Assembly: GCA_964398475.1 (NCBI GenBank) | Contig: CAYNMP010000012.1 | Coordinates: 22,540 to 86,539 of the forward strand | DNA: 64,000 nucleotides | Origin: an uncultured Chitinophagaceae bacterium | Lineage (GTDB): Bacteria > Bacteroidota > Bacteroidia > Chitinophagales > LD1 | Direction of reading: 5' to 3' | In this document: positions 2,014-20,557 of the stretch, in pieces | Position numbering within the stretch: the stretch's first letter is position 1 | Layout: each line of letters begins with the position of its first letter | The notes under the pieces: model-generated | What the model was told of the DNA's origin: nothing | What the model saw: only the letters and a program-made list of their open reading frames with translations | Databases searched by the model: none | Position numbers and translations under genes: made by a program

Positions 2014-2037
2014 CACTACGTTCTGCCCGGAAATAAT

Positions 2038-3942: not shown

Positions 3943-4085
3943 GGTTTTCGAAAATAGGTTGTGCAACATTACTTCTTCAAACCAAACCTGTATGTGTTTT
4001 TCAGTCATCGCAGGCATTTGATTGCCCAATGACAAAAGTGTTTACAAATTTTAAGATTTTTTAAGTGCTTCTTATTTGTGTAGAA

Positions 4086-5957
4086 CTAGTTCAGGATACG
4101 AAACGCTTGATTCTTCGCCCCTCCACCACCGGAGAATATTTTACGCAAATCGTTTTTCTCGTACTCGATTTTTTTCTCCACCACAATCATATTCTTTTGG
4201 TTTTTGGTGACCAAAATCGGAGGACCTGAAAGTTCCACTTCCTTGTTATTTCTGCGCACCAAAAACGTAACCTGCTTATTGTAATTTGTAGCACTGAATT
4301 TTTCCAGCAAACTATTGATATTCTCTTTTGTTACCTTCTTTTTATTAACCGCCAGTAAAACATCGCCTTCCCTAAAGCCTACTTGATCGATAGAAATATT
4401 CGCTAAGAAATATTCTTTAGTGGCTTTGGAATAACGATATACGGCACTTACATACATTTTAGAAGTATCGGTTTTCTGCGACTCGTATTTCCAACCTATG
4501 GAACTCAAATACTCGTTATAGTTGAGGCTGATGGTGTCGCGTACATATTTTTGCAAAAAGTCTTTAATTTCAGGATAAGAATATTTCGCTAGCTCATCCG
4601 TCATTTGTTCATCGCGCATCACATAGTTTTCGCGAGAAGCCGATTGCAAATCAATAAGCAACGATTTTAAACTCATTTTACCTTTGCTCAACTTCATTAA
4701 TTTCAAATCCATCATCATAGCAATGAGTGCCCCTTTAGTATAAAATGATTTATACATTTTCTCGTTACCCTCCAAATAGCAGGTTTTACTGGCATCTGAT
4801 AGGGCATAGTTTTCAGTGTAGTTTACCAAGTTGATTTTGTTGCGAATTTCGTTGATGAATTCCGTTTCAGTAATCAGCTCTTGTTGATATAACATTTGGA
4901 GCGATAGATATTCGGTAAAGCCTTCGTACATCCATAAATTTTCCGACTGACTTTTGGCTCTGAAATTGATTTTACTGGTTACATCGGTTTGCATTTTCAA
5001 CGGACCGAACAAATGCATTAATTCGTGTGCGCAAGTGTAAGACAAGTCGCGTTCAAACTTGTACATATTGTTGGTGATAGGAAAATAAAACACAGCCGAT
5101 TTGGAATGCTCCACTGCACCAAAAGCCTCTTCCGCCTTAAAGGGATCACTTTCCGGTAATACATAATTTAAAATGAAGGTGTATTGTTTTTCCGTAAACC
5201 CTTCACAGTATGCATTTGCAGATTCGCACACCGATTTCAATACTTTTTCGATAGTTAAAGATTGATTGTCTACTCCTTCCGTATAATAGCCGATTTTAAA
5301 TTTTGTTTTCCCGACAATAAAGGTGCGCTCTTTCTCTTTAGAATATAAAATCGGGTTATCGATGAGTTCTAAATATCCTTGCTCTGCTTCAGCAATATCT
5401 ATCGAATCGTTCATGGTAATATCTAATCCGGATATAGTATACAACTGATGCGGCTTCTTAATTTCAACATGAAAAGGAAAATCTTCAAAGCCTTGAATAT
5501 AGCCGGCTAAAGCATGAAAATTCAATAAAAATTGTGTGCCGGGTTTGAAGCTGGTACCAATTTGCGGAAGAATTAAATTGCCATTTTGAAAATGCCATGA
5601 ATCGTGTACGTCATATTCTATTCGGGCTAATTGTCCGTGAATGATAATTTCGTATTCATTCATCGAATAGGGTTCCACCGTTAATACTTCGTTGGCCGTG
5701 TTATAGGCTCGAATATTAGAAAACAGCTTACCCGTTTTTAATTCGGATATGGTTCCCGGAATATTAGAAGGAATAACAAATCGAACTTTTCTAAGCTCGA
5801 TAGGTGGCGTTCGCATAACAATATGAAGCGAATTGTTTTCGCATTCATTTAGATTTAAGTAGAGACTAAATGCATCTTTTGCAGCAAATATTGATGATTG
5901 GAATGAAAAGAGTACTACTAAGAAAAGAATATTTCGAATCAGATGCTGAGAAGGCAT
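4086..5957 (-). CDS. M61 family metallopeptidase with C-terminal PDZ domain, secreted
   Basis: HELMH (HEXXH) zinc motif and a PDZ-like C-terminus (GDVLLAVNKKKV). A signal peptide follows the internal Met at 5957. Confidence 0.65.
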   Translation of the reverse strand: MPSQHLIRNILFLVVLFSFQSSIFAAKDAFSLYLNLNECENNSLHIVMRTPPIELRKVRFVIPSNIPGTISELKTGKLFSNIRAYNTANEVLTVEPYSMNEYEIIIHGQLARIEYDVHDSWHFQNGNLILPQIGTSFKPGTQFLLNFHALAGYIQGFEDFPFHVEIKKPHQLYTISGLDITMNDSIDIAEAEQGYLELIDNPILYSKEKERTFIVGKTKFKIGYYTEGVDNQSLTIEKVLKSVCESANAYCEGFTEKQYTFILNYVLPESDPFKAEEAFGAVEHSKSAVFYFPITNNMYKFERDLSYTCAHELMHLFGPLKMQTDVTSKINFRAKSQSENLWMYEGFTEYLSLQMLYQQELITETEFINEIRNKINLVNYTENYALSDASKTCYLEGNEKMYKSFYTKGALIAMMMDLKLMKLSKGKMSLKSLLIDLQSASRENYVMRDEQMTDELAKYSYPEIKDFLQKYVRDTISLNYNEYLSSIGWKYESQKTDTSKMYVSAVYRYSKATKEYFLANISIDQVGFREGDVLLAVNKKKVTKENINSLLEKFSATNYNKQVTFLVRRNNKEVELSGPPILVTKNQKNMIVVEKKIEYEKNDLRKIFSGGGGAKNQAFRILN

Positions 5958-6101: not shown

Positions 6102-6830
6102 ATGGAAATTCCGTATTGGATGTCGAGAACCCAGTTAATGCTGGGCGATGAGGATTTAAAAAAACTAATCAACAGTAATGTTTTGGTAGTTGGATTAGGT
6201 GGTGTGGGTGGTATTTGTGCCGAAATGATTGCCCGAACCGGAGTTGGCCGTATGACGATAATTGATGGCGATGTGATAGAAGCGAGCAATAGAAATCGCC
6301 AAATTATAACCCTTGCAAGTGTAGACGGACAAAAGAAAACAGAGGTCATGCGACAGCGTTTGTTAGACATCAACCCGGAAATACAACTGCAAGTGATAGG
6401 CGAGTTTTTTGGAGAAAAGGAGTTTATTCATCTGTTTCACGACAATCAATACGATTTTGTGGTGGATTGTATTGATACACTTACACCGAAAGTTTCATTG
6501 ATACATTATTGCTACAACCATAAAATCAAGTTCATCAGTTCGATGGGGGCAGGAGGAAGATTAGACCCTTCAAAAGTTCAGGTAACCGATATTTCGAAGA
6601 CCTTTAATTGCAAATTGGCCTATAAAGTGCGAAAGCGTTTACATCAAAAAGGAGTTTACAGGGGTATTAAAGCCGTTTTTTCGGCTGAACAGCCCGACTA
6701 TAATAGAGTGCGCGAAGTGGATGGCGGCCCTAAAAAATCGGTAATTGGGACCATTTCCTATTTGCCGGCTATCTTTGGTTGTGTGCTTGCCAGTGAGGTG
6801 ATAAAAGGACTTCTAGGGTATAAAAATTAG
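6102..6830 (+). CDS. tcdA: tRNA threonylcarbamoyladenosine dehydratase (ThiF/MoeB/HesA family, TcdA-like)
   Basis: Rossmann motif VVGLGGVGG, IDGDVIEASNRNRQ, and the TcdA-specific N-terminus. Confidence 0.65.
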   Translation: MEIPYWMSRTQLMLGDEDLKKLINSNVLVVGLGGVGGICAEMIARTGVGRMTIIDGDVIEASNRNRQIITLASVDGQKKTEVMRQRLLDINPEIQLQVIGEFFGEKEFIHLFHDNQYDFVVDCIDTLTPKVSLIHYCYNHKIKFISSMGAGGRLDPSKVQVTDISKTFNCKLAYKVRKRLHQKGVYRGIKAVFSAEQPDYNRVREVDGGPKKSVIGTISYLPAIFGCVLASEVIKGLLGYKN

Positions 6831-6941
6831 AAATAGAAAGTAACTGCATATACCCGTTAGCGGCAAATCGTACATATTTTTTTATATAACATATACATTA
6901 TATTCATTTTTGGCTTACATTCACGAAAAATAAAAACACTT

Positions 6942-8351
6942 ATGAAATCCAAATTTCTATTTCTTTTCGTTCTAACTACCTCGATGATGAGCACTTTTGC
7001 TCAAACACAAATGCCTAATGCAGGTTTTGAAAACTGGACAGGTGGCAACCCAGATGGTTGGGGAAATTCTGATGCGATTATTAAAGGTATTTCTGGCTCA
7101 GATCCGGGTGGAGTAGAAAAAGAAACCAATGCCGGTGATATCTATGTTGGTACAGGTTCTTTACGTTGCAAAACAGATTCAGTAACTATTGCATTACTTG
7201 GGCAAACGGTTTTAGTACCTGGCGTTACGAGCTTAGGAACATTAACATTGAACTTTGCTACACAAAATTTAGATTTAAAAGGAATAGGATATACCGATCG
7301 CCCGGATTCTTTTTCATTCGCTTATAAATATACAAGCGGAACTGCAGCTCCTGATACTGGAGGCGCAATCGTTACATTAACTAAAGCTGTACCTGGACCT
7401 AATGGTCGTTTAGTTGTAGGGAATGCTCAACTTTCAGCAACACCACAAGGCAGTTATATTGTTTTGAAAGGAAAAATCAACTATCAATCTGCATTAGCAC
7501 CGGATACATTGTACATTCAATTACTGTCTAGTGCTAGCTTTGGAGGTGGCGTAAAAGGATCTACACTTTGGGCTGATGATTTGAAATTTTTAGGTTTAGA
7601 CACCGCATTTAAAGCGTATATCCGTCCGTCTAATTTATTTGGACCTCAATCGGTTTGCGCTGGTGATACTGTTCGTTTTGAAACAGATAACATTCCGGGT
7701 TATTCGTATCGTTGGTTAAACAACAATGCAGCTATTCCGGGTGCATCATTTGATAGATTCCCTGCTACAATTTCAGGTGCGTATAGTGTTGAGGTTACCA
7801 ATGGATCTCGTAAAGATACATCAGAGGTTGTAAACGTGATTGTAAATCCTCTTCCATCGGTTACATTAACCGGCAATCCGGATACATTGTGCAAGAATGC
7901 AGGAGCAATTAATTTAGGCGGTGGAGCACCTGCAGGTGGAACATTCTCGGGAACTGGTGTAACCGGTGGTTCATTCAATCCGGCTGCAGCAGGAACAGCA
8001 AATACAGTTATTACTTATGAGTATACAGATAATAATGGATGTACAGCTAGCGCGACAGAAACTATTGTTGTGAAAGTTTGCTCTTCTATTGATAAGATTT
8101 CTGAAGATATACTTTTCAATATGTATCCTAATCCTGCTAGTAGTGTATTGAACATTGAAACGGATCAACAATTGTTCGGAACAACTATTCAAATGTTAGA
8201 TATCACCGGAAAGGTTATCAGTACACAAGCAATAGAAAACAACAAAACTATGTTCAACGTAAGTAATTTCGCTAACGGAAATTATTTCTTCCGTGTAGTG
8301 AACAAACAAAATGAAACTTTAGTGAATGGTAAATTCGCTGTAACTAAATAA
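6942..8351 (+). CDS. T9SS-secreted protein with Ig/PKD-like domains and type-A C-terminal sorting domain
   Basis: Signal peptide and a Cys-containing Ig-like unit. The C-terminal sorting domain reads LFNMYPNPASSVLNIETDQ...GNYFFRVVNKQ. Confidence 0.75.
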   Translation: MKSKFLFLFVLTTSMMSTFAQTQMPNAGFENWTGGNPDGWGNSDAIIKGISGSDPGGVEKETNAGDIYVGTGSLRCKTDSVTIALLGQTVLVPGVTSLGTLTLNFATQNLDLKGIGYTDRPDSFSFAYKYTSGTAAPDTGGAIVTLTKAVPGPNGRLVVGNAQLSATPQGSYIVLKGKINYQSALAPDTLYIQLLSSASFGGGVKGSTLWADDLKFLGLDTAFKAYIRPSNLFGPQSVCAGDTVRFETDNIPGYSYRWLNNNAAIPGASFDRFPATISGAYSVEVTNGSRKDTSEVVNVIVNPLPSVTLTGNPDTLCKNAGAINLGGGAPAGGTFSGTGVTGGSFNPAAAGTANTVITYEYTDNNGCTASATETIVVKVCSSIDKISEDILFNMYPNPASSVLNIETDQQLFGTTIQMLDITGKVISTQAIENNKTMFNVSNFANGNYFFRVVNKQNETLVNGKFAVTK

Positions 8352-8373
8352 TCGTATCACTCGATACTTACAA

Positions 8374-8407
8374 AAAATCCTGTCAACATTATGGCAGGAT
8401 TTTTTGT
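8374..8407 (+). terminator. rho-independent terminator after the 6942-8351 gene
   Basis: Hairpin AATCCTG-N11-CAGGATT followed by TTTTTGTTT. Confidence 0.5.
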
Positions 8408-8490
8408 TTCCGGAATAACAAACTGAAATAATAATACGGTAGAACATTTCCGTTCTGTCTTCATTTTCATATCATTGTAACAACAGATAT

Positions 8491-9246
8491 ATGCGAGCAA
8501 TAATAATAGACGATGAAGTTTTAGCGCAAGAAACACTAAAGCAACTATTGGGCGAAGTTGCTCCAATGTTGGAGGTAGTAGATATTGCTTCAAACGTAGC
8601 AGAAGGCGTAAAATCGATTAACCGGTATAAACCCGACATCGTATTTTCGGATATCGACATGCCCGGCATAACCGGTTTGCAATTACTCGAGTTTTTTAAT
8701 GAAGAAGATATTCAATTCGAATTGATTTATGTTACGAGTTACTCGGAGTTTGCAGTTCGTGCTTTTCAGCTTTCGGCTATTGATTATTTGCTGAAACCGG
8801 TGGAGAAAGAACTGCTTGAAAAGGCGATAAAAAAGGTAGAGAAGAAATTGAATTTCGGACAGAGCGAGCGAAACTTAGCGCTTAAAGCATCGATTGCAAA
8901 CAATACTTTCGAAAAGATTGCATTACCACTTGCCGATGGTGTTGTGTTTGTGGAAATGAAAGACATATTGGTGATGAAAGCCGATAATGTATATACCGAA
9001 GTGGAATTGGCTAACGGCAAAAAAATTGTTGTTTCAAAGCCATTAAAATCTTTTGAAAAATTATTGACAGAACAAATGTCGTTCTTTAGAATACATCGCT
9101 CCTATTTGGTGAATTTGAAAGGCATAAAGCAGTTTATTAAATCGGATGGTGGTACCGCCATTATGGAAAACGAAACACAAGTACCTATTGCCCGCGACAG
9201 AAAAGAAAGCTTTGTGAAAGCATGGGAGAAAATTCGAGTGCGCTAA
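8491..9246 (+). CDS. two-component response regulator, REC + LytTR DNA-binding domain (LytR/AlgR family)
   Basis: The receiver domain has IIIDDE...DIVFSDIDMPGITG...YLLKP. The LytTR C-terminus has FFRIHRSYLVNL. Confidence 0.85.
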   Translation: MRAIIIDDEVLAQETLKQLLGEVAPMLEVVDIASNVAEGVKSINRYKPDIVFSDIDMPGITGLQLLEFFNEEDIQFELIYVTSYSEFAVRAFQLSAIDYLLKPVEKELLEKAIKKVEKKLNFGQSERNLALKASIANNTFEKIALPLADGVVFVEMKDILVMKADNVYTEVELANGKKIVVSKPLKSFEKLLTEQMSFFRIHRSYLVNLKGIKQFIKSDGGTAIMENETQVPIARDRKESFVKAWEKIRVR

Positions 9247-9247
9247 A

Positions 9248-11137
9248 TTATCCTTGTATAATGGACAGCTGAACTTTTGTTCCTATCGCTACATCACTTT
9301 CCATCACATCTATTGTTTCCATTTTCATTTTCTCGAAACCGGCTGTTGTATTGATAATCTTAATGCGATCGTCAATGGATTTAGTGGCAAACGATTGATG
9401 TTGTTTTCGGTCTTTATTGAGTTCTGCGGATGCTTTACGTCCAATGCCATTATCTTCAATTGTGATTTGCATTATAGTTTGCTCGTCATTATCTTCCATA
9501 GTGAATTCAATGTTCAATTTCTGTTTGCCTTGCTTAGTGCGTAAACCATGTTTCAAAGCATTCTCAACAATAGGTTGCAAAATCAACGAAGGAATGCGTT
9601 CGTAAGTAACATCGATGGAATCATCTACCGTTATTGTGAATGAAAAGTTATCGCCTAAAATCAACTTTTCAAGGTGAAAATAGTTACTCAAAAAATCAAT
9701 TTCATCTTCTATAACAATTTCATCGCCCTGACTTTGTTCTAATGTGCTGCGCATCAATCGCGAAAATTTACGCAACGAATCTTGTGCTTCGTCTACTCTC
9801 CCACTCTGCATCAAATTACTTACCGAACCAATGGCATTAAACATAAAATGCGGATTCATCTGGCTTTTGAGCAATCGCAGTTCGCTGTTGAGGTTGTCGA
9901 TTTGCAATTGCTTGAGTTGCGCTTCTTTTTGTTTTGTTTCGAACCGGGTATGGAGTTGGGCATACTCTTTAGATTTTTCAGTTGCATAGATATTTTTTGT
10001 CAATGCTTGATGCTCTATGAGTGCTTTATAAGCATTTGTGTCATCACCACATTGATGGTAAGCGCTATGCAGCAATGCGGTAATGTTTTGCAACAAAACT
10101 TTATCGTCTCGCTCCAAAAACAACTGTTTGTTTTTTTCAAGAATAGTCACTGCCTCTTGCGGATTATTCTGCCTCTGGGCAATATCCGCTAAGTAAAAAT
10201 AAATCTCAGCTTCACTCTTCACCACACTTTTATTGTTTATCAGCGATAAAAGCTCAATCGCCAATATTTTCGCCTCTTCCAAGCGGTTATCATTGATTAA
10301 TACCGGAATTTTTTTACTCGATATATAAAAATCGGAAAGTACATCGTTCAACAATTTAGCTTGTTCAGAGGCAGCTGTATAGGCCTTCTCAGCAGCTGCA
10401 AAATCATTAAGTTGCTCATACATACTTGCCTTAAGACGATAAGCACCTAACAGATTCATGTGTCCGTTTTGTGACTTCTCTAAATCAATAAAGCGATTTA
10501 TATATCCTATACTTGATTCAAAATCTTGCATTTTCCCGGTAATCAATGCTAACGATTGTAAGAAACACGATTGTCTACCAATGTCTTTTATCGCAGTAGA
10601 TTTTTCAAGACCTTCGATTGCCAACAGCAAAACATCGGCATAGTCTGTTCCTGTGCGATATAAAATACTAGTGCGTTGATAAAGAATATCTAAGTTTAAA
10701 TCGTTATAACGCATATCTTCTTCATTGATTTGCGTATCAAGTATTTCTTTGGCGATGTGCAATGAATGTATCGCTTCATCCAATTCAGATCTTCCTAATT
10801 GATACATAGATTTTAAATACCACGCATGAACAAGATCGGCAAACAAACTTGAAGCTAGCGTTAGGGCAATAAGTTCGTCAACACAACTCTCTTCATCCGG
10901 AGTAATTTTCATGGATTGAATTCGTACTTCCGCTAAAACACGTAATGCATTGCACAATGCATCAATAGCGTTAAGTTGCTTACTCAATGCAACCCATTCG
11001 CATGCAATTTCTTCAGCTTCAGGATCGTTGACCTCATATGCAGTTGCTGCTAAAGTCTTTAACAGCAACAAACGCTCAGCAGGTTGTGTTACTTGTAATA
11101 GTCTATTTTTTAAAACATTTATCTCACTTGTAGTCAT
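9248..11137 (-). CDS. cytoplasmic TPR-repeat sensor histidine kinase of the LytS/YehU type (His_kinase PF06580-like + HATPase_c)
   Basis: NPHFMFNAIGSV H-box, IVENALKHG N-box, IEDNGIG G-box. The N-terminal half is helical and TPR-like, and no TM segment was seen. The stop lies 1 bp from the convergent response-regulator stop. Confidence 0.8.
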   Translation of the reverse strand: MTTSEINVLKNRLLQVTQPAERLLLLKTLAATAYEVNDPEAEEIACEWVALSKQLNAIDALCNALRVLAEVRIQSMKITPDEESCVDELIALTLASSLFADLVHAWYLKSMYQLGRSELDEAIHSLHIAKEILDTQINEEDMRYNDLNLDILYQRTSILYRTGTDYADVLLLAIEGLEKSTAIKDIGRQSCFLQSLALITGKMQDFESSIGYINRFIDLEKSQNGHMNLLGAYRLKASMYEQLNDFAAAEKAYTAASEQAKLLNDVLSDFYISSKKIPVLINDNRLEEAKILAIELLSLINNKSVVKSEAEIYFYLADIAQRQNNPQEAVTILEKNKQLFLERDDKVLLQNITALLHSAYHQCGDDTNAYKALIEHQALTKNIYATEKSKEYAQLHTRFETKQKEAQLKQLQIDNLNSELRLLKSQMNPHFMFNAIGSVSNLMQSGRVDEAQDSLRKFSRLMRSTLEQSQGDEIVIEDEIDFLSNYFHLEKLILGDNFSFTITVDDSIDVTYERIPSLILQPIVENALKHGLRTKQGKQKLNIEFTMEDNDEQTIMQITIEDNGIGRKASAELNKDRKQHQSFATKSIDDRIKIINTTAGFEKMKMETIDVMESDVAIGTKVQLSIIQG

Positions 11138-11144
11138 GTTGAAA

Positions 11145-12971
11145 TTAACTTAAGATGTTTATCAAAACACTTGTGCCTGTTGCTCCACCTTCAGCATCCG
11201 TTTTATCAATAAAAGACAGTGTAATTTTCTCGAACTCGGCAGTAGTATTAATGATCTTTATACGCTCATCAATCGACTTTGTAGCAAACGATTGATGTTG
11301 CTTTCGGTCTTTATTGAGTTCTGCGGATGCTTTACGACCAATGCCATTGTCATCGATCAAAATTTGCATTGTAGTTTGCTCGCTATCCTCTTCTAAAGTG
11401 AAAGAAATATTCAATTTGCGTTCCCCTTGCTTTGTTCGTAAACCATGTTTCAAAGCATTCTCAACAATTGGCTGCAAAATCAACGAAGGAATGCGTTCGT
11501 AAGCAACATCGATGGATTCATCTACCATTATTGTGAATGAAAAGTTATCACCTAAAATCAACTTTTCGAGATGTAAATAGTTACTCAAAAAATCAATTTC
11601 ATCTTCTAAGAGTATATCATCGCCTTGGCTTTGTTCCAATGTACTGCGCATCAATCGCGAAAATTTACGCAACGAATCTTGCGCCTCGTCTACTCTCCCA
11701 CTTTGCATCAAATTACTTACCGAACCAATGGCATTAAACATAAAATGCGGATTCATCTGACTTTTGAGCAAACGTAACTCGCTGTTCAAGTTATCGATTT
11801 GTAATTGCTTTACTTGCGCCTCCTTTCGTTCGCTATCGTATTTGGTTTGTAACTCCGACATCGTTTTTGTTCGCTCCTCACCCGTAATTTCTAATCGGAT
11901 ATTATAGAACTTTTCAAAATAAGTATATGCCTTTTCGAAATCTCCGATACACTTATACTGTTCGTGTAATTTCTGATAAACATGCATACGTTCATTTCTA
12001 TCGGCAATGTATAATTCATCGGCTGCTAAAGATTCTAAAAGCGCTAAAGCACCTTGATGATCTTTGGTTTGGGCACAATAATCAGCTTTCAAAAACACAA
12101 ACACATTGTTAGAGCGAGTTGCATTAGCCTCAACGATACTGGGTTCAATATCAGCAATGGATTGGGCAGCCTTAACGGTTTCGCCAAGTTCTAAGTACAT
12201 TCTAATTTTACGGAGCACAACATTAATCACCGCATGAATGTTATGCATCAGACGGGCATAATGTTCCGATTGATTAAATTTCTCTTCTGCCTTTTCGAAA
12301 TTCTTTAACGTATAGTATACATAAGCAACGTAGCCCGAAGCACCTGCAATATTTCCAAAATCGTTTTGCTTAATTGCCAACAATATTAATTCTTCCATAT
12401 AAGCTACCGATTGCTCTTGATTACCTAAAACGGAATTCAGCATAGCTATAGACTGGAGAAAAAGGCAGTGTAATTGATAATCGTTTATTGCTTGTGCTTT
12501 AATTAAACTCTCATGTGCTATGGCAAGTGCTTGCTCGAGTTCCCTTTGTTTTCGGATACTTAATTGAATAAAATTGTAATTGTAGGTAAGTCGTTCTGTG
12601 GTTAGGTCCATTGTTGTATCTTCATACTCGTTGAGTACTGCCGATGCCTTATCACAAAAGAACTCAGACGTATTGAGATCAACAGACAAATAATGTGTTA
12701 TCTTAAAATTATAAGCGACTAAGAGTTCTTTAATCAATAAATTCGCATTCGTAAATTCAATCAATTCATCAAGATAAGTAAGACCTATAGGACTATAATT
12801 CCCAAATTGTTCATTGGCTCTCACCATGAGCGTTAGTGCCTGTGCATATAGGTTTTTATCATTCATTTCGGCAGTTATCTTCAATAACTCTTCTGCCAAT
12901 GCAACAGCCTTGGGTCGATTGTCGTTTAAACAAGCTTCAATCTCTTTCTTTAACGCCACTATATCTGCCAT
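11145..12971 (-). CDS. paralogous TPR-repeat LytS-type histidine kinase (tandem duplicate)
   Basis: The C-terminal roughly 230 aa are almost identical to the kinase at 9248-11137 (KQLQIDNLNSELRLLKSQMNPHFMFNAIGSVSNLMQSGRVDEAQDSLRKF...). The N-terminal TPR region is divergent. A 7-bp gap separates it from the downstream kinase, so they probably form an operon. Confidence 0.8.
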   Translation of the reverse strand: MADIVALKKEIEACLNDNRPKAVALAEELLKITAEMNDKNLYAQALTLMVRANEQFGNYSPIGLTYLDELIEFTNANLLIKELLVAYNFKITHYLSVDLNTSEFFCDKASAVLNEYEDTTMDLTTERLTYNYNFIQLSIRKQRELEQALAIAHESLIKAQAINDYQLHCLFLQSIAMLNSVLGNQEQSVAYMEELILLAIKQNDFGNIAGASGYVAYVYYTLKNFEKAEEKFNQSEHYARLMHNIHAVINVVLRKIRMYLELGETVKAAQSIADIEPSIVEANATRSNNVFVFLKADYCAQTKDHQGALALLESLAADELYIADRNERMHVYQKLHEQYKCIGDFEKAYTYFEKFYNIRLEITGEERTKTMSELQTKYDSERKEAQVKQLQIDNLNSELRLLKSQMNPHFMFNAIGSVSNLMQSGRVDEAQDSLRKFSRLMRSTLEQSQGDDILLEDEIDFLSNYLHLEKLILGDNFSFTIMVDESIDVAYERIPSLILQPIVENALKHGLRTKQGERKLNISFTLEEDSEQTTMQILIDDNGIGRKASAELNKDRKQHQSFATKSIDERIKIINTTAEFEKITLSFIDKTDAEGGATGTSVLINILS

Positions 12972-13085
12972 CGTGTAATTGTATATTTTTAAACTCTGCT
13001 ACATCACCAATTTAAACGCTACGCTTTTCTGCTTTGGTAATATACGATTGTCGGCAAAAATATTGAATCTACATTTACTTAACTT

Positions 13086-13156
13086 ACCATTCACAAGTTG
13101 AAAACAACCATTCACAAGTTTTTAGCCTAAATATAAAGGCTAATCCATCAACTTTG
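13086..13156 (+). promoter_or_regulatory. candidate LytTR operator + promoter (site A): ACCATTCACAAGTT at 13086-13100 and CCATTCACAAGTT at 13108-13120, then CAACTTTG box at 13149-13156
   Basis: Two direct repeats 20 bp apart start to start. A Bacteroidetes-style -7-like box lies 29 bp downstream. The site is in the divergent intergenic region between the kinase operon and the LytTR-only gene. Confidence 0.5.
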
Positions 13157-13162
13157 GGCGCA

Positions 13163-13495
13163 ATGGCGGGAAACAAAATTCAATTGAAAACAGGAAATGA
13201 ACTCATCTTTATAGCGCAAGATGAAATAGTAGCCGTTATGGCGGAGAACATTTATTGTGTATTTCTGCTGAAAGACAATAAAAAGGTAAAAACAGCACTA
13301 TCGTTAAGTGCTGCCATGCAGTTACTCGATGCAAAATATTTTTACAAAATACATCGATCGTATATCATCAACATCAACGCCATTGAAAGAATTGATTTAG
13401 CAACAGCTACAGTTCAACTTCAATATAGTACTGCAACTTTCCCCATTGCCCGTCAGCAGAAAAAGGCATTTCTAGCCTACCTCAAAACCAATTGA
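13163..13495 (+). CDS. standalone LytTR DNA-binding domain protein (no receiver domain)
   Basis: YKIHRSYIININAIERID is a LytTR signature and the protein is only about 110 aa. ATG at 13163 is preferred. The ORF track begins at TTG 13154. Confidence 0.65.
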   Translation: MAGNKIQLKTGNELIFIAQDEIVAVMAENIYCVFLLKDNKKVKTALSLSAAMQLLDAKYFYKIHRSYIININAIERIDLATATVQLQYSTATFPIARQQKKAFLAYLKTN

Positions 13496-13507
13496 ATCAA
13501 TAATCGG

Positions 13508-13577
13508 TCATTCACAAGTTGAAGTTCACCATTCACAAGTTAGAGGAATAAAGCGCGTACATAGTGCAACATATTTG
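13508..13577 (+). promoter_or_regulatory. candidate LytTR operator + promoter (site B): GTCATTCACAAGTT 13508-13520, CCATTCACAAGTT 13529-13541, CATATTTG box 13570-13577
   Basis: Same architecture as site A: 21-bp repeat register, 29 bp to the box, and the box 20 bp from ATG 13597. Confidence 0.5.
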
Positions 13578-13596
13578 CTGCACAAAAATAAACAAC

Positions 13597-14883
13597 ATGA
13601 AAAAAATTTACACTGCTTTAGTTGCATTAGGTTTAGCCATTGGCGCAGATGCTCAGATTCCAACGAATGGATTAATTCACCATTTTAATTTTGATGGCAA
13701 CTTAAGTAATGAAGTAAGTGGCGCAACGCCATTAGTGAGCGATTCGCTTGACTATTGCTTCGACACAAGAGTAAATAACTTACCACCGGCTTATACGAAA
13801 GATCGAAAAGGTAGAGACAATAAAGCGTATCTCTTGCTTTCCATAGAAAAATCGATTTTGGCCACCTGTGGAGGCTCTCCAAAGCAAACAACTACTTTTA
13901 TCAGTAACTCACTAAAAACAAGAGATTCCATTGCGCTGGGAAGCGGAGATAGAGCCATTGCGTTTTGGGCTAAAATGCCGAAAGTTGCAAGTTCGCAGAT
14001 TTTCCGTTTTCACCGAATCAATACAGGACTTGCACCTAAAAGTGCATTTGGGTTAGACATCAAAAACGACAATCCAAGTAACATTACTGCCTATACTTGG
14101 GGAGGAGGTTCAAATGATTATGTATTCAATACACCATTAGATACAAACTGGCACTTCTTTTTAATTACTGTTGAAAATTCAATTCTGTATTTGAACATCG
14201 ATAAAACACTGATTGGCTCAACATCTGTATCGGGATTAAACACAAGTACCGGGCAGTTATTTCTAGGTCAATTCTTTAAACAAGACTCCATTTATATCGA
14301 CAATGTAATGATTTATAACCGTGCTTTAACCACAAATGAAGTAGAGGTGGTATATGCAGATTCGTCAATTGCTTGCGTAAATCCAGATGTAAGCGCTACT
14401 GCACAAAACACAAGTGTAAGCATATCGATTTCAAATGCAGCAAGACCAACTGTTGTAAGCATTAAAGATGGCGATGGAGGAATCCTTCAATCGGACACGA
14501 TTACTTCAGGAAGCGGAACAGGTAACGTTTCTTTCACAAATCTTGCACCCAATACGTTTTACTATTACACGGTAACGAATGCGGATGGATGTTCTTCAAC
14601 TTCATCTTTCACGACAACAAACAATCCAACCGGAGTGAATACACTTTCTTCGAATACACGAGTAACGTTATATCCAAACCCTGCAAATAATGTATTACAT
14701 ATATCGAGTGAAATTACGTTTGAGAAAATTCAAATCACAAACGTAATCGGCAGCATTATCAAAGAGGAGACACTATCAGGCACAAGCATTAACATTAATG
14801 AATTACAGGCAGGTGTTTTTTACTTTGCTAAATTAATCGACAGTAAAGGCGCTATCGCCACAAAGAAATTTATTAAGCAATAA
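13597..14883 (+). CDS. T9SS-secreted protein: LamG/ConA-like lectin domain + Ig-like domain + type-A C-terminal sorting domain
   Basis: Signal peptide MKKIYTALVALGLAIGADAQ. LamG-like stretch (LFLGQFFKQDSIYIDNVMIYNRALTTNEV). Sorting domain VTLYPNPANNVLHISSEI...KKFIKQ. The start is set at the internal ATG. Confidence 0.8.
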   Translation: MKKIYTALVALGLAIGADAQIPTNGLIHHFNFDGNLSNEVSGATPLVSDSLDYCFDTRVNNLPPAYTKDRKGRDNKAYLLLSIEKSILATCGGSPKQTTTFISNSLKTRDSIALGSGDRAIAFWAKMPKVASSQIFRFHRINTGLAPKSAFGLDIKNDNPSNITAYTWGGGSNDYVFNTPLDTNWHFFLITVENSILYLNIDKTLIGSTSVSGLNTSTGQLFLGQFFKQDSIYIDNVMIYNRALTTNEVEVVYADSSIACVNPDVSATAQNTSVSISISNAARPTVVSIKDGDGGILQSDTITSGSGTGNVSFTNLAPNTFYYYTVTNADGCSSTSSFTTTNNPTGVNTLSSNTRVTLYPNPANNVLHISSEITFEKIQITNVIGSIIKEETLSGTSININELQAGVFYFAKLIDSKGAIATKKFIKQ

Positions 14884-14906
14884 TTTTCATGGGTCTGTTT
14901 TGTGTG

Positions 14907-14940
14907 ATCCCGGTGTTGTAATGACATCGGGATTTTTTTT
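14907..14940 (+). terminator. rho-independent terminator (conserved family hairpin)
   Basis: ATCCCGGTG-loop-CATCGGGAT followed by T8. Confidence 0.6.
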
Positions 14941-14953
14941 GCAGAATAAACTA

Positions 14954-15023
14954 CCATTCACAAGTTCAACATTACCATTCACAAGATGCCATAGTAAAGC
15001 CGAGTCGTTCCAATTCATATTTG
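14954..15023 (+). promoter_or_regulatory. candidate LytTR operator + promoter (site C): CCATTCACAAGTT 14954-14966, CCATTCACAAGAT 14975-14987, conserved ATAGTAAAGCCG, CATATTTG box 15016-15023
   Basis: 21-bp repeat register. The box is 29 bp downstream and lies 22 bp before ATG 15045. Confidence 0.55.
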
Positions 15024-15044
15024 CATCAACAAAATATTTACAAC

Positions 15045-16781
15045 ATGAAAAAAATTTACTCAGCCTTAGTAGCATTAGGTTTAGCGTTAGGCGCAAATGC
15101 ACAAACACCGATTTACACGCTTGATTCCACTTTTAATGCCGATGGCATTGCAGGATTTGGTATTGCAGGAAATGCTGAAGCTTCCGGGAACGCTATTCTG
15201 CGGTTATCATTTCAAACACCGTTTGGAATATGGGTGGCAGGGCGAATTAAAACCGCAGGAAATGCCAGTACAAGTTTCTACATAGCTAGATTATTAGATA
15301 ACGGAAATCTTGATACCGGTTTTGGTAGTAATGGAAATTATGGTTATACCGTAAACGCAAACATTAACAGCAACGTTATTGACTTACATAATATTTATGG
15401 AAGTGTGTACGCATCACACAGTGGGTATGGTGGTTTACATGCACCAAGTGCCACGTCTGCAGTAGTGAATAATCAAACCTATAACTTATCCGATAATTAT
15501 ATCATTGCTTCCGACAAATTAAATGACAGTTTAATCGTTCAACTATCTTCCAATAATGAATTACTTTGTTACAAGGTAAATAGTGGTAGTACGTATGCGG
15601 GATACGCTTGGTTTGATGGAGGAAACTACTACGGAAACATGCCAACAACTGTGGATGGGTTATCGCCTGTTGTAAACCAAAAAATGGCCGTTCAAAGTGA
15701 TGGAAAAATATTGGTAGCAGGACTTGCAGGCTCAGGCGGCAGTCATTTATTTATACAACGGTTCAAAAAAAACAGCTTTAGTGTTTTGGATAGCACCTTT
15801 GGTGTAAATGGAGTAGTGAAATACATAACAGGAAATCAAGTTCCGATTAGAGATGTAAGCTGTATGCAAGTTTACCCGAATGGAGATAATAGAATAGTAC
15901 TTGGTTATGGAAATTTTATCTATCGTTTTTCAGCTAATGGCACTAAAGATAATACGTTTAACACCCAACTGACTGACAATGATGAAGTATTTACCCGAAT
16001 AGCATTTTCGCCTTATAATGATGTTGTTGCTATAGCAAAAACAAGTACAGCATCTGCTTTGTATGGATTCAAAAATGATGGTAGTCCGCTAAATTCATTT
16101 CACAAAGGCAAAAACACATACTTAAAAACAGATGCTGATGTCAATTTGAATACAATGGATTTATTGGATGTGAAAATAGATGCCGGAGCAAATATTTATG
16201 TTTCAGGTAGCATGAAAGAAACAAGTACAAGTGATCCAAAAGTTTTGATCATGAAGTTGAAAGCAAGCTTATGTACAGCACCAAGTGTAGCAATTGATGA
16301 AAAAGCTGGTGCAGCTGATTTTGTGATCTTTAATGCAGTAAGACCCACTGTAGTTGTAATTAGAGATGGCGATGGTATTAATGTTGTGAATGACACCATC
16401 AAAACAGGTACAGGTAATGCAAGTGTTTCCTATTCCAACTTAGGACTTAATACAACGTATAGCTATATTGTCGCTAATCCTGATGGTTGTAGTTCAACTG
16501 GAGTATTTACAACGTTAGCATCAAACCCAACAAGTATAAACGATTTGAATAATGATAAACATGTTGTTCTATATCCTAATCCTTCAAAGAGCACATTAAA
16601 TATTTCAAGTGAAATTACATTTGATGCAATAGAAATTTCAAATGTGTTGGGTGCAGTAGTAAAAGCTGAAGTGCTTAACAATAACAGTATCAATATTACT
16701 GAATTACAGCCAGGCGTTTACTTCGCAAAATTAATCAACAGTAAAGGCGCTATCGCTACAAAGAAATTCATCAAAGAATAA
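15045..16781 (+). CDS. T9SS-secreted protein with delta-60-type beta-propeller repeats, Ig-like domain and type-A C-terminal sorting domain
   Basis: Signal peptide MKKIYSALVALGLALGANAQ is nearly identical to that of the 13597 gene. ARLLDNGNLDTGFGSNGNY is a delta-60 repeat signature. Sorting domain VVLYPNPSKSTLNISSEI...KKFIKE. Confidence 0.8.
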   Translation: MKKIYSALVALGLALGANAQTPIYTLDSTFNADGIAGFGIAGNAEASGNAILRLSFQTPFGIWVAGRIKTAGNASTSFYIARLLDNGNLDTGFGSNGNYGYTVNANINSNVIDLHNIYGSVYASHSGYGGLHAPSATSAVVNNQTYNLSDNYIIASDKLNDSLIVQLSSNNELLCYKVNSGSTYAGYAWFDGGNYYGNMPTTVDGLSPVVNQKMAVQSDGKILVAGLAGSGGSHLFIQRFKKNSFSVLDSTFGVNGVVKYITGNQVPIRDVSCMQVYPNGDNRIVLGYGNFIYRFSANGTKDNTFNTQLTDNDEVFTRIAFSPYNDVVAIAKTSTASALYGFKNDGSPLNSFHKGKNTYLKTDADVNLNTMDLLDVKIDAGANIYVSGSMKETSTSDPKVLIMKLKASLCTAPSVAIDEKAGAADFVIFNAVRPTVVVIRDGDGINVVNDTIKTGTGNASVSYSNLGLNTTYSYIVANPDGCSSTGVFTTLASNPTSINDLNNDKHVVLYPNPSKSTLNISSEITFDAIEISNVLGAVVKAEVLNNNSINITELQPGVYFAKLINSKGAIATKKFIKE

Positions 16782-16804
16782 TTTTCATCAGTAGGTTTTG
16801 TGTA

Positions 16805-16838
16805 ATCCCGGAGTTTTAATGACATCGGGATTTTTTTT
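16805..16838 (+). terminator. rho-independent terminator (conserved family hairpin)
   Basis: ATCCCGG...TCGGGAT followed by T8. Confidence 0.55.
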
Positions 16839-16850
16839 GCAAAAAAACTA

Positions 16851-16920
16851 CCATTCACAAGTTCAATATTACCATTCACAAGATGTTATAGTAAAGCCGG
16901 CAGGTTCGGATGCACTTTTG
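16851..16920 (+). promoter_or_regulatory. candidate LytTR operator + promoter (site D): CCATTCACAAGTT 16851-16863, CCATTCACAAGAT 16872-16884, ATAGTAAAGCCG, CACTTTTG box 16913-16920
   Basis: Identical architecture to sites C and E. The leader to ATG 16949 is longer than at the other sites (28 nt from the box). Confidence 0.55.
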
Positions 16921-16948
16921 CATCATTATAAAACACAAAATTATATTT

Positions 16949-19900
16949 ATGAAAAAATCAAACAACTCAAAAAACAAAAGAGCCTGGCAGTTGCTCTTAA
17001 ATCTACTGCTTTTGATTATAACCAATGGTAGCTTTCAATTGGCAAAAGCACAATGTAATCCGACACCCAATGCTGCTTTCATAGCACTATCCAATTACAA
17101 TCCTTGCATAGGCAGTACTATCACAGTACAGGTAAGTGGGATGTATCTACCAAATGCAAACTGGCAAGCAGTTCTTCAATATCCTAACTCATCCATAAAC
17201 ATAACCGGAAATGGGAACTATACTATTCCAATTACTACTGGAGGAAATGTTGTAGTCAGCATTATGAATAACGTAAATGGTTGTCCAACTGTTTATAATT
17301 CTAATGTGCTGACATTTTCAGTTTTGCCGGGAAATAAACCTACAGCACAGTCTGACACAGTTATTCGATTCTGTACAGGGGATAACAAATTTTTATTTGT
17401 AACAGCACCCAACGCAGCTTCTACTTTCCAATGGAAAAAAAATGGAACTGTAGTAGGTACGAATAACGACACATTATTTTTAAACACTATGGCTGCGACT
17501 GATACCGGATCTTACAAATGCTATATAAGCTCATCCACTTGTGGTTCAGATTCTTCAAAAACAATCAAACTAAAATTTGGAAGTATAGAATCTCAATCCG
17601 GAAATCTATCGCTATGCTCAGGCTCACAAGGTTTACTATGGGTGAAAGCTCCATCGGCCAATAATTTTGTTTGGAAATTAAATGGAGTTGCCATTCCAAA
17701 TTCAAATAACGATACCCTTACAATAAATAATTATACAACCGCTCAAGCAGGAACATATACCTGTGAAGCTTCGTTGAATGGCGGTTGTTTGAATACCGCT
17801 AGCTTTACGATCACCACCAATACTAATGTTACACTATTTGATTTTTCGACTGTAATAGCATCCTATCCAATGAGTGGAAATGCCAATAATGCAGTTTCTA
17901 CTTCAAACAACGGTACTGTTAATGCAGGCTGCACATTAACGGCTGATAGAAATGGAAATATTAATCGTGCTTATGACTTCAATGGTACAGCAAATGGCAC
18001 TATCAATATGGGAGACATCACGGCAATGAACGGTGCAAATGTACTTTCCATTAGTGGTTGGTTCAAAAGAACCAATATCAACCGCAATAATGAATTTTAC
18101 AGTAAAGTAATTGATTCCAGCGGGATATATTGCAGAGACTATTTGCAAAGTAATTATACTTACAACACCTTTGGAAACAATACACCAGCCATTAGCCCTA
18201 TAAACACGAATTGGTTTCATTACACTATGACCTTTAGTGGTGGCGCAATGAAAGTATTTGTTAATGGTACTCTAGCTGCTCAATTTTCAAATTTTGCAAA
18301 ACCATCTATTCAGTCGGCCACAGGCTCATCATTTATTTTGGGCGATATTTTGCGTGGTGGTACTACCGCTTATCCTTCTGATAATTTCATAGGACAAATG
18401 GACGAGATTAATATTTTTTCTAAGGAATTGAACCCAGTAGAAATTGCAGCGCTAATGAATGCCCCTCAATTTACGCAGCATCCACAAAATGCTTCACTTT
18501 GTGCGGGAAACAATTTGACACTTTCTGTTCTTGCTGAATCGCCTACTGCATCATTTCAATGGCAGAAAAACGGGGTAGATATTGCAGGTGCAAATCAAGC
18601 TACATTTACAAAAGCCAATATTCAAGCGGCTGATGCAGGTTCTTACACTTGTATAGTATCTGTGGGTTGTAATCGTTCTATCTCAAAGGCAGCTGTGGTT
18701 ACGGTTAGTTCGAATAGCATAACCATAACTTCCCAACCACAAGCACAATCTAAATGTGTTGGTCAATCGGCCTCTTTTACAGTAGCAGCAACAGGAGGCA
18801 CCGGTTATCAATGGAAAAAGAATGGGGCTAACATCAACGGACAAACTGCTGCTACATTAAACTTGAGCAGTGTAGCCGTATCCGATACAGGAACCTATGT
18901 ATGCGAAATCAGCGGTGGTAGTTGTGGTTCGTTAAGTAGCCAATCTGCATACCTAAGTGTATCTGCAATTCCTACTCCAACAATTTCGGGAGCAAGCGCT
19001 GTTTGTTCTGGAAGTGCTATCACGCTTACAGCAAACGGTGGAAACACATACGCATGGAGTAATAGTGGAGGAAATGCAGCATCTGCTACCTTCTCGCCAA
19101 CAACAGCTACTACCTATACCGTAACGGCTAGTTTAGGTGCAGGATGTACGGCTACTGCTACTAAAACCATAACCATCAAACAACCTACTGCAGGAAGTTA
19201 TAGTCAAACGATTTGCTTCGGACAGTCGGTAGTTTTTAACGGCATCTCTCGTGCTCAAAGTGGCGCTTACTTAGATACACTTGTAAACCTTGCCGGTTGC
19301 GATTCGTTCTTAACGTTGAACTTAACGGTTCGTCCGCAGATTACAAAAAGCATTGCGCAAACGGTTTGTTTTGGGGGAAGTACAACTTTCAACGGAGCTA
19401 CATTAACGCAAAGTGGAGTGTTCAAAGATACCTTGACGTCTGTAACCGGATGTGACAGTATCTTAACCTTGACCTTTACTGTTCGTCCGCGTATTGTTAC
19501 ATCTATTACGCAACCCATTTGCAATGGTTCGGCTATTACCTTCAACGGACAAACCATTACTACTGCAGGTACTTACTTAGATACACTAACCAGTGTAAAC
19601 GGTTGTGATAGTTTCATTACCTTAAATGTAACCATTGCACAAGCTACAGCAGCTACAATTAGCCAGAGTGCTTGTGGAAGTTATAGTTTTGGTGGAAACA
19701 CATTAACAGCAAGTGGAACGTACTTAGATACCATTTCAAATACTACAGGTTGTGATTCAGTAATTACATTGAACTTAATCATCAATCAAGCAACGGCATC
19801 AACTAAGAATGATACAATATGTTTTGGAACAACATACGCTTTCGGTTCTCAAACATTGAGTGCAACGGGTACTTACACTAGAACCATTCCAAATGCAGTA

Positions 19901-20395: not shown

Positions 20396-20418
20396 TTTTC
20401 ATGAGTCGGTTTTGTGTG

Positions 20419-20456
20419 ATCCCGGTGTTGTAACGACATCGGGATTTTCTTTTCGA
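20419..20456 (+). terminator. rho-independent terminator (conserved family hairpin)
   Basis: GATCCCGGTG...CATCGGGAT followed by TTTTCTTTTC. Confidence 0.5.
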
Positions 20457-20469
20457 CAAACAGACAATA

Positions 20470-20539
20470 CCATTCACAAGTTCAATACTACCACTCACAA
20501 GATGCAATAGTAAAGCCGACCGGTTCGGTTGCACTTTTG
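20470..20539 (+). promoter_or_regulatory. candidate LytTR operator + promoter (site E): CCATTCACAAGTT 20470-20482, CCACTCACAAGAT 20491-20503, ATAGTAAAGCCG, CACTTTTG box 20532-20539
   Basis: Same 21-bp repeat register and 29 bp to the box as the other sites. ATG 20558 lies 19 bp after the box. Confidence 0.55.
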
Positions 20540-20557
20540 CAGCATAAAACAACAATC

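Follow-up and report, generated by a model that had tools for sequence, protein, structure and literature searches.

Tandem soluble TPR-sensor histidine kinases with divergent sensors, similar transmitter cores and an adjacent LytTR regulator in an uncultured Chitinophagales bacterium

The window analysed here is a 64-kb stretch of DNA from an uncultured Chitinophagales bacterium from wastewater (activated sludge or membrane bioreactor). It encodes two histidine kinases in tandem, named K1 and K2, each of which combines a sensor half of tetratricopeptide repeats (TPR) with a transmitter core of the PF06580 (LytS/YehU-type) class. A response regulator with a receiver (REC) and a LytTR domain is encoded convergently to K1, and on the other side of the pair lie genes for a small LytTR protein and for four cargo proteins of the type IX secretion system (T9SS), each preceded by a predicted operator (Table 1). 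An earlier reading of the sequence alone (the sequence-only reading) had described the kinases as tandem, paralogous and soluble and, indeed, both open reading frames (ORFs) were found as described, on the same strand and 7 nt apart. The spacer between the upstream gene K2 and K1, read directly, is TTTCAAC.

The kinase pair

A Pfam search identified the His_kinase domain PF06580 at residues 419-498 of K1 (E 1.8e-21, 76.6 bits) and 398-477 of K2 (E 5.7e-21, 75.0 bits; cut-off for both 25.2 bits). The HATPase_c match in K1 was weak and below its cut-off (20.3 vs 26.4 bits). TPR matches of the single sequences were several in both proteins and mostly below the Pfam thresholds, and TPR membership is supported by the family profile, which matched the TPR sensor 6mfv (E 5.5e-8). 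His430 of the NPHF motif, N526, DNGIG562-566 and G619 are invariant in 15 of 15 aligned family members, K1 and K2 included. None of the NCBIfam models names K1 or K2; the 90% clusters to which they belong have 34 (K1) and 33 (K2) members, which share contigs and are annotated just as "histidine kinase" or "TPR repeat protein". Both genes are intact at full length on ~33 independent contigs, and the layout K2-7 nt-K1 recurs in three further independent assemblies, L005, L006 and L013, with DNA identities to the window of ~92%, ~95% and ~92-94%, respectively; L013 is the metagenome-assembled genome "Chitinophagales bacterium MAG_MBR_H125.23". Therefore, the pair cannot be put down to faulty assembly. 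On long contigs, several of the genes called as K1 (P0145, P0151, P0155) end at residue 475-478, within the core shared with K2, which probably marks assembler breaks at the K1/K2 repeat. In L006 (9685-11512), one extra nucleotide at gene nt 333 splits K2 into two called ORFs (116 and 503 aa), either because of a sequencing error or because K2 is beginning to be lost.

The fold of K1 was modelled with AlphaFold (AF2) on a 15-sequence family alignment, with a mean pLDDT of 81 and ~90 over the TPR region. The model has 19 helices at residues 3-362 that form a TPR superhelix, a 79-residue helix (366-444) that bears His430, a further helix (448-469) and an alpha/beta ATPase. Foldseek matched the N-terminal part to the LGN/Pins TPR domain with TM-scores of 0.71-0.76, to LGN and consensus TPR proteins with 0.71-0.79, and also to Rap proteins and a STAND TPR sensor. 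Like the modelled K1 sensor, the RRNPP/Rap and LGN TPR receptors have a superhelix of 8-9 repeats of similar size and curvature (TM-score 0.64-0.76). They bind extended peptides in the concave groove, but their identity to the K1 sensor is just 11-14% and their output domain differs. The kinases probably sense a peptide or protein that binds in the TPR groove.

Neither kinase contains a transmembrane (TM) segment, as the sequence-only reading had claimed: the maximal Kyte-Doolittle mean over 19 residues was 1.57 in K1 and 1.04 in K2, both within TPR helices, the AF2 model of K1 is soluble and free of membrane helices, and a Pfam scan of K1 and K2 gave no match to the 5TM-Lyt domain. The sequence-only reading had called this unusual for LytS-type kinases. 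The lack of a TM segment is not peculiar to this pair, however, but characterises an entire small clade of kinases of the Chitinophagales type. In the nearest kinases outside the clade, a TM helix precedes the His by 45-60 residues. Solubility is, therefore, a derived trait that arose in the K1/K2 clade by loss of the TM segment. Membrane-anchored kinases, common in Bacteroidota (for example P0017 and P0020-P0025), have the same order of TPR, coiled coil, His_kinase and ATPase as K1 and K2, and the core of P0017 is 63% identical to that of K1, with the junction motif F.YE(T/S)E.KEA common to both. They differ in the single TM helix ~45-60 residues before the His; P0017, P0025 and P0063 also have a hydrophobic N-terminal segment. 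To judge from the positions of the hydrophobic segments, the TPRs of the membrane-anchored kinases probably lie outside the cytoplasm.

Table 1 Features of the kinase locus in the 64-kb window
Feature	Position	Strand	Basis
REC + LytTR response regulator, convergent with K1, stop codons 1 nt apart	8491-9246	+	Pfam, sequence read directly
K1, soluble TPR-sensor histidine kinase, PF06580 (LytS/YehU-type) class, 629 aa	9248-11137	-	ORF, Pfam, AF2 model
Shared transmitter-core DNA block, K1 copy	9327-9933	-	blastn, 87.6% over 607 bp vs 11224-11830
Gene-conversion tract in K1, core nt 55-400, whole PF06580 domain + N-box	9528-9873	-	Quartet sites
N1, sensor half of K1, TPR superhelix, rare deep lineage	9934-11137	-	23% identical to N2
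K2, soluble TPR-sensor histidine kinase, class as K1, 608 aa	11145-12971	-	ORF, Pfam
Shared transmitter-core DNA block, K2 copy	11224-11830	-	blastn, 87.6% over 607 bp vs 9327-9933
Corresponding tract in K2	11425-11770	-	Quartet sites
N2, sensor half of K2, orthologous to single-kinase sensors of sister lineages/outgroups	11831-12971	-	aa identity
Predicted LytTR-type operator, K2/LytTR-only divergent intergenic region	13086-13118	+	ACCATTCAC-12 bp-ACCATTCAC
Stand-alone LytTR protein, no receiver domain, 113 aa, divergent from K2	13154-13495	+	Pfam LytTR, E 2e-16
Predicted operator upstream of cargo gene at 13564	13507-13539	+	ACCATTCAC-12 bp-ACCATTCAC
Putative regulon, four consecutive T9SS cargo genes, LamG or Ig repeats + Por_Secre_tail domain	13564-27400	+	Pfam; predicted operator before each
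Cargo gene 1	13564-14883	+	
Predicted operator upstream of cargo gene at 15021	14953-14985	+	ACCATTCAC-12 bp-ACCATTCAC
Cargo gene 2	15021-16781	+	
Predicted operator upstream of cargo gene at 16910	16850-16882	+	ACCATTCAC-12 bp-ACCATTCAC
Cargo gene 3	16910-20395	+	
Predicted operator upstream of giant cargo gene at 20537	20469-20501	+	ACCATTCAC-12 bp-ACCATTCAC
Cargo gene 4 (giant)	20537-27400	+	

Sensor halves, cores and gene conversion

K1 and K2 were compared by protein alignment with codon back-translation, and identity was determined per segment of 30 residues. It was far from uniform: in alignment columns 1-390 it amounted to 10-37% per segment (~40% at the DNA level), whereas from column ~415 on it reached 87-100%, with a dip to 67% at columns 541-570 and ~50% at the extreme C-terminus. 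Altogether, the N-terminal ~380-400 residues are 23% identical and the last 229 aa 82%. The step begins at a coiled-coil motif, KEAQ(L/V)KQLQIDNL, with the junction between KEAQ(L/V) and KQLQIDNL. The step claimed in the sequence-only reading is thus real, but the C-terminal 230 aa and their DNA are not nearly identical as stated there: the shared block is 87.6% identical over 607 bp, and in the final 27 codons (9248-9326 vs 11145-11223) DNA identity is only ~50%. Similarly, the spurious ORFs at 9417-9605 and 11314-11502, reported to be identical, agree in length and register, yet only 50 of 62 residues are the same. The N-terminal TPR regions are indeed little alike, yet they are colinear and homologous (BLASTP E ~4e-17 over 374 aa).

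Conservation in the core is strongest around the phosphorylation site. Core residues 1-69 (K1 404-472), which span most of the modelled helix 366-444 with His430 and its partner helix 448-469, contain a single difference between K1 and K2, an L/V exchange. The corresponding core nt 0-210 nevertheless differ with a rate of synonymous substitutions (dS) of 0.71, which argues that the identity of the His-bearing helices is due to purifying selection as much as to homogenisation.

The sensor halves have different histories. In the related loci L003 and L004 (~82-85% DNA identity, flanking genes as in the window) and also in L001 and L002, there is only one kinase, which combines a K2-type sensor with a K1-type core and tail. 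The K2 sensor, N2, is 78-87% identical at the amino acid level to the single kinases of L003, L004 and L001 and 50-53% to those of the outgroups L007, L008 and P0011. The K1 sensor, N1, is only 25-27% identical to the outgroup sensors. Its nearest non-orthologous relative is P0121 (29-31% identity), the lone kinase of module L010, to which it is closer (166 bits) than to N2 (~73 bits). When 1.8e9 cluster representatives were searched exhaustively with HMMER, P0121 was the sole protein outside the K1 cluster below an E value of 1e-10, and in a word-indexed search of 5.8e9 clusters a single 90% cluster, that of K1 itself, carried N1. A donor gene with N1 and a K2-type tail was found in neither of the two; the hits were the K1 cluster and the distant P0121. 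Both sensors are under purifying selection, with a dS of 0.20 and a rate of nonsynonymous substitutions (dN) of 0.028 for N1 and a dS of 0.24 and dN of 0.025 for N2 between the window and L005.

The K1 core tells a different story from its sensor: it is 48.6% identical to the core of P0121 but 92% to that of the L003 single kinase. Since N1 is nearest to P0121 and the K1 core nearest to the L003 kinase, the trees of sensor and core are incongruent, and K1 is a chimera whose two parts meet at the coiled-coil motif. The pair is, therefore, not a simple duplicate. Fixed differences separate the K1 and K2 cores at 42 sites; at all 42, the single kinase of L003 agrees with K1, including the first 12 nt of homology, and the outgroups mostly have the K1 state as well. 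The dS between the K1 core and the L003 single kinase is 0.585, close to that of the neighbouring N2 (0.55) and the regulator (0.60), as opposed to 1.30 for the K2 core. By both measures, the K1 core and tail and the K2 sensor are orthologues of the single kinase, so the contiguous stretch in between, made up of the K2 core and tail, the spacer and N1, is extra material. The candidates for its origin are an insertion by recombination in the core and the loss, by deletion in L003 and L001, of one member of an older pair. The single kinases of L003 and L001 would be ancestral in the first case, which fits the single kinases of the outgroups and the K1-type states of L003 at 42 of 42 sites; in the second case they would be deletion products of the pair, which fits a K2 core older than the split of the window and L003 (dS 1.30 vs 0.55-0.60) and the K2-type states of the L001 single kinase at the 5' core end and elsewhere.

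The sequence-only reading had postulated concerted evolution of the transmitter cores, and this is borne out. Site patterns were analysed in quartets made up of K1 and K2 of the window and K1 and K2 of L005. Within core nt 55-400, 19 informative sites grouped the sequences by genome and 1 by gene, whereas outside this tract the numbers were 2 and 53 (Fisher p 1.4e-14). Compared with L005, L006 and L013 behaved likewise: overall, 18 and 14 sites, respectively, were of the "paralogues alike" kind. Among the window, L006 and L013 themselves the quartet comparison gave no conversion signal. In core nt 210-420, dS was 0.24-0.37 between the paralogues of one genome but 0.68-0.75 between the orthologues of the window and L005; in the same region, K1 and K2 of L005 are 93.3% identical, compared to 84.3% and 87.6% for the orthologue pairs. 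Further evidence came from 12 K1 and 14 K2 protein alleles from metagenome assemblies. The K1 alleles contain contiguous K2-type tracts with at least four distinct pairs of end points, and the K2 alleles are uniform; the first diagnostic position and the tail were never converted in K1. The varied tract ends in K1 and the uniformity of K2 indicate that conversion is recurrent and biased from K2 to K1. Concerted evolution of the cores by gene conversion is thus directly supported.

The regulator, the predicted operators and the cargo genes

The REC and LytTR domains of the regulator were recognised by Pfam above the cut-offs (E 6e-21, 75.1 bits and E 1.5e-17, 64.1 bits), and among the NCBIfam models it is most similar to BtsR and LytR, though below their cut-offs. 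It is the sole response regulator in the window. A REC-LytTR gene is convergent with and abuts the kinase gene in 11 of 11 related loci (L001-L010, L013), and a full-length REC-LytTR match abuts the kinase in 9 of 9 related loci searched. In every related locus, the kinase and regulator genes are at most 5 nt apart or overlap by up to 6 nt; in the window the gap is 1 nt (9244-9250). With convergent genes and such a tiny gap, the transcripts must overlap in antisense at their 3' ends, as there is no room for a terminator. The assumption of one LytTR regulator stands as far as the REC-LytTR protein is concerned but is incomplete, since a second, REC-less LytTR protein belongs to the circuit. This 113-aa protein is 27% identical to the LytTR domain of the regulator; its gene is present in the species group (window, L001, L003-L006, L013) and absent from the outgroup modules.

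A blastn self-comparison first flagged a short repeat, which turned out to be a candidate LytTR operator. Half-sites were observed 11 times in the window, compared to 1.46 expected, and none of 100 shuffles reached 11. Ten of the 11 form five pairs with a 21-bp period, all on the + strand and all upstream of + strand genes. A single half-site at 37325-37335 has one mismatch and no partner 21 bp away and is probably a chance match. Neither the cargo gene at 6942 nor the regulator gene (8491-9246) has a paired site upstream. The published LytTR consensus is ACCACTTAC-12 bp-ACCACTTAC (PMC6193735, Tables 2-3), and the sites of the window agree with the published sites in geometry and in the leading ACC. 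Like the operators of AgrA, ComE, PlnC, HdrR and BrsR (PMC6193735), they are built from two 9-bp direct repeats on either side of a 12-bp spacer, just upstream of a promoter. Unlike those operators, which serve bacteriocin, competence and virulence genes, they occur in a Bacteroidota host, with a promoter of the -7 type and T9SS cargo genes as targets. At the cargo gene at 15021, CATATTTG is found ~30 nt after the site at 14953-14985. This motif resembles the Bacteroidota -7 box; the true ATG of this gene is probably at 15046. A sigma-70 promoter and terminator scan of 8300-13700, which is ill-suited to Bacteroidota promoters, gave no more sites than shuffled sequences.

Each of the outgroup modules L007-L009, like the N1-like module L010, has one soluble TPR kinase, whose gene converges on that of a REC-LytTR protein and diverges from a T9SS cargo gene. 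In L007-L010, a paired site of the type ACC(A/G)TTCAC lies upstream of the cargo gene, at core identities of only 48-62%. Module and operator are thus conserved together, and since REC-LytTR is the only LytTR protein in the outgroup modules, the REC-LytTR regulator is the likeliest binder of the operators. The small LytTR protein resembles the receiver-less regulators of the HdrRM and BrsRM systems, with a paired direct repeat upstream of its own gene. However, no membrane inhibitor of the HdrRM/BrsRM kind is co-transcribed with 13154-13495, the next gene being a T9SS cargo gene with its own predicted operator, and unlike these systems the locus holds a classical kinase and regulator. In the cargo array, successive 3' ends together with the next intergenic region and its operator are 77-88% identical (14671-15028, 16570-16935, 20178-20568); the array seems to have expanded through tandem duplications of a unit that brings its own operator.

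A proposed two-kinase, one-regulator module

Taken together, we propose a many-to-one module in which two TPR kinases act on one REC-LytTR regulator and, through it, on five operators and the cargo genes, and we assign this reading a probability of about 0.7. K1 and K2 would be co-transcribed cytoplasmic kinases, each with a different superhelix of 8-9 TPRs as sensor that is joined by one continuous helix to a near-identical His-bearing dimerisation domain and an ATPase. Both most likely phosphorylate the single convergent regulator, which most likely binds the five ACCATTCAC-12 bp-ACCATTCAC sites and activates the gene of the REC-less LytTR protein as well as the four genes for T9SS cargo, which are surface proteins with LamG/Ig repeats. 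The REC-less LytTR protein, in turn, may act back on the circuit, either aiding the regulator as a co-activator or competing with it. The mosaic of the kinases would have three causes: halves with different histories, the K1 sensor coming from a deep lineage; strong purifying selection on the His-bearing helices; and recurrent gene conversion of the core, mostly from K2 to K1, which would keep both sensors wired to one regulator. In this way, K1 and K2 could integrate two intracellular signals. Of this picture, the sequence-only reading had not recognised that K1 is chimeric or that purifying selection plays a part, and it had overlooked the second LytTR protein, the predicted operators with their putative regulon and the recurrence of the pattern in the phylum.

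Several points weigh against this proposal. While the gene structure, the lack of TM segments, the modelled fold, the synteny, the conservation of the operator and the conversion tracts are shown by the analysis, we infer phosphotransfer by both kinases, DNA binding, activation as opposed to repression, and the signals. The kinases and the regulator are convergent and not co-transcribed; the partner regulator may lie elsewhere in the genome, beyond the 64-kb window, and the REC-less LytTR protein could be the operator binder in the species group. The 1-nt insertion in K2 of L006 suggests that K2 may be dispensable. K1 of the window is of the unconverted (least converted) allele type, so homogenisation is a property of the population and not of this sequence. 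Finally, exact runs common to the paralogues reach 56-122 nt, and some mosaics could be assembly chimeras. As the general source of the mosaics, assembly chimerism was judged unlikely, since the pattern is one-way while chimerism should be reciprocal, and since identical mosaics recur in independent assemblies (P0001/P0150, P0142/P0153).

The two kinases may work mainly as a heterodimer, that is, as one kinase with two TPR arms, and not as parallel homodimers. The identical dimerisation helices make heterodimers possible: core residues 1-69 differ at one position only, the genes are 7 nt apart and probably co-translated, and the conversion tracts span the whole PF06580 domain. On the other hand, N1 and N2 differ in the coiled coil that directly precedes the core (K1 366-403), and the single-kinase relatives are presumed homodimers; as the principal form we regard the heterodimer as possible but doubtful. 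We consider it unlikely that only one kinase signals while the other is redundant, decaying or mainly a phosphatase or antagonist, so that no two signals are integrated. Such a reading would account for the frameshift in K2 of L006, for the sufficiency of a single kinase in L001-L004 and in all outgroups, and for the more derived C-terminal part of K2, but it is at odds with catalytic residues that are invariant in both kinases, with low dN/dS across strains in both sensors and both cores, and with full-length copies of both genes on ~33 independent contigs.

The remaining alternatives dispense with DNA exchange. Purifying selection alone, imposed by the shared regulator and by catalysis, explains the protein identity in core nt 0-210 (100% bar the L/V exchange, at dS 0.71), but not that in core nt 210-420 the paralogues have a lower dS than the orthologues, nor the contiguous runs of by-genome sites and the patchwork tracts in the alleles; it is very improbable as a full explanation. 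A plain recent tandem duplication, with fast-diverging sensors and cores alike merely through youth, would fit two adjacent, same-strand genes that are colinear over the full length and whose sensors are detectably homologous, but it is largely refuted by N-terminal DNA identity of only ~40% next to a core dS of 0.58, by the sensor lineage (N1 is nearer to P0121, which stems from the single-kinase module of another organism, than to N2, and N2 is 50% identical to outgroup sensors vs 23% to N1), by the by-genome grouping of core nt 55-400 and by K1 alleles with K2 tracts of differing ends, and we hold it to be scarcely credible.

K1 and K2 share with the kinases of the LytS-LytR, BtsS-BtsR (YehU-YehT) and YpdA-YpdB systems the PF06580 domain with NPHF, the GHKL ATPase and a REC-LytTR partner. 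The latter kinases are polytopic with a 5TM-Lyt sensor and are encoded co-directionally with their regulators, unlike the module of the window with its cytoplasmic TPR sensors, its lack of TM segments, its two kinases and its convergent regulator. Networks in which several kinases with varied sensors converge on one receiver include KinA-E, which act on Spo0F, and LuxN, LuxQ and CqsS, which act on LuxU. There, the genes are dispersed and the transmitters diverged, whereas in the window the transmitters are in tandem and kept alike by conversion. Paralogous two-component systems are usually discussed as diverging at the kinase-regulator interface for insulation; here, the opposite force is seen in natural populations. 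Recombination that keeps adjacent transmitters alike while the sensors stay far apart is a simple genetic route to add an input to an existing output. With one regulator, a canonical predicted operator and five target promoters, the module is tractable for studies of cytoplasmic TPR sensing and of the control of T9SS surface proteins in Chitinophagales from wastewater. In the literature, whose coverage was incomplete so that the absence is weak evidence, we found no account of this kinase family, of LytTR control of T9SS cargo, of conversion between tandem kinases or of a pattern of divergent sensors and similar cores.

In a survey of 80 loci from species-representative genomes, out of 92 loci in all, the pattern was found in unrelated Bacteroidota. 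The tandem kinases of locus L032 (Spirosomataceae, 6819-10648) have sensors that are 10-30% identical and C-terminal parts that are 96.9% identical with a dS of 0.30, those of L034 (Spirosomataceae, 447-4564) have C-terminal parts that are 88.8% identical, and L046 (Aquimarina atlantica, 7335-13111) has four kinases in a row with cores that are 82-92% identical. In all three loci, LytS-type kinases on the same strand, here TM-anchored, lie beside one LytTR regulator, with sensors 10-40% and cores 82-97% identical; kinases of separate modules with their own regulators in these loci are 42-49% identical. The recurrence in Spirosomataceae and Aquimarina suggests that this may be a general way in which the phylum builds multi-input circuits. 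Tentatively, and with the odds rather against it, one could go further and regard tandem LytS-type arrays of Bacteroidota as a plug-in sensor system, in which the core is both the wiring to one LytTR regulator and a recombination handle for the gain and loss of sensors from unrelated lineages and for re-homogenisation of the transmitters, possibly with two-input heterodimers. If so, the window would be a case caught in the act, with the gain of N1, single-kinase relatives and one-way tracts that are still segregating. In L032 and L034, the junction lies at the coiled-coil motif F.YE(T/S)E.KEA, as in K1 and K2.

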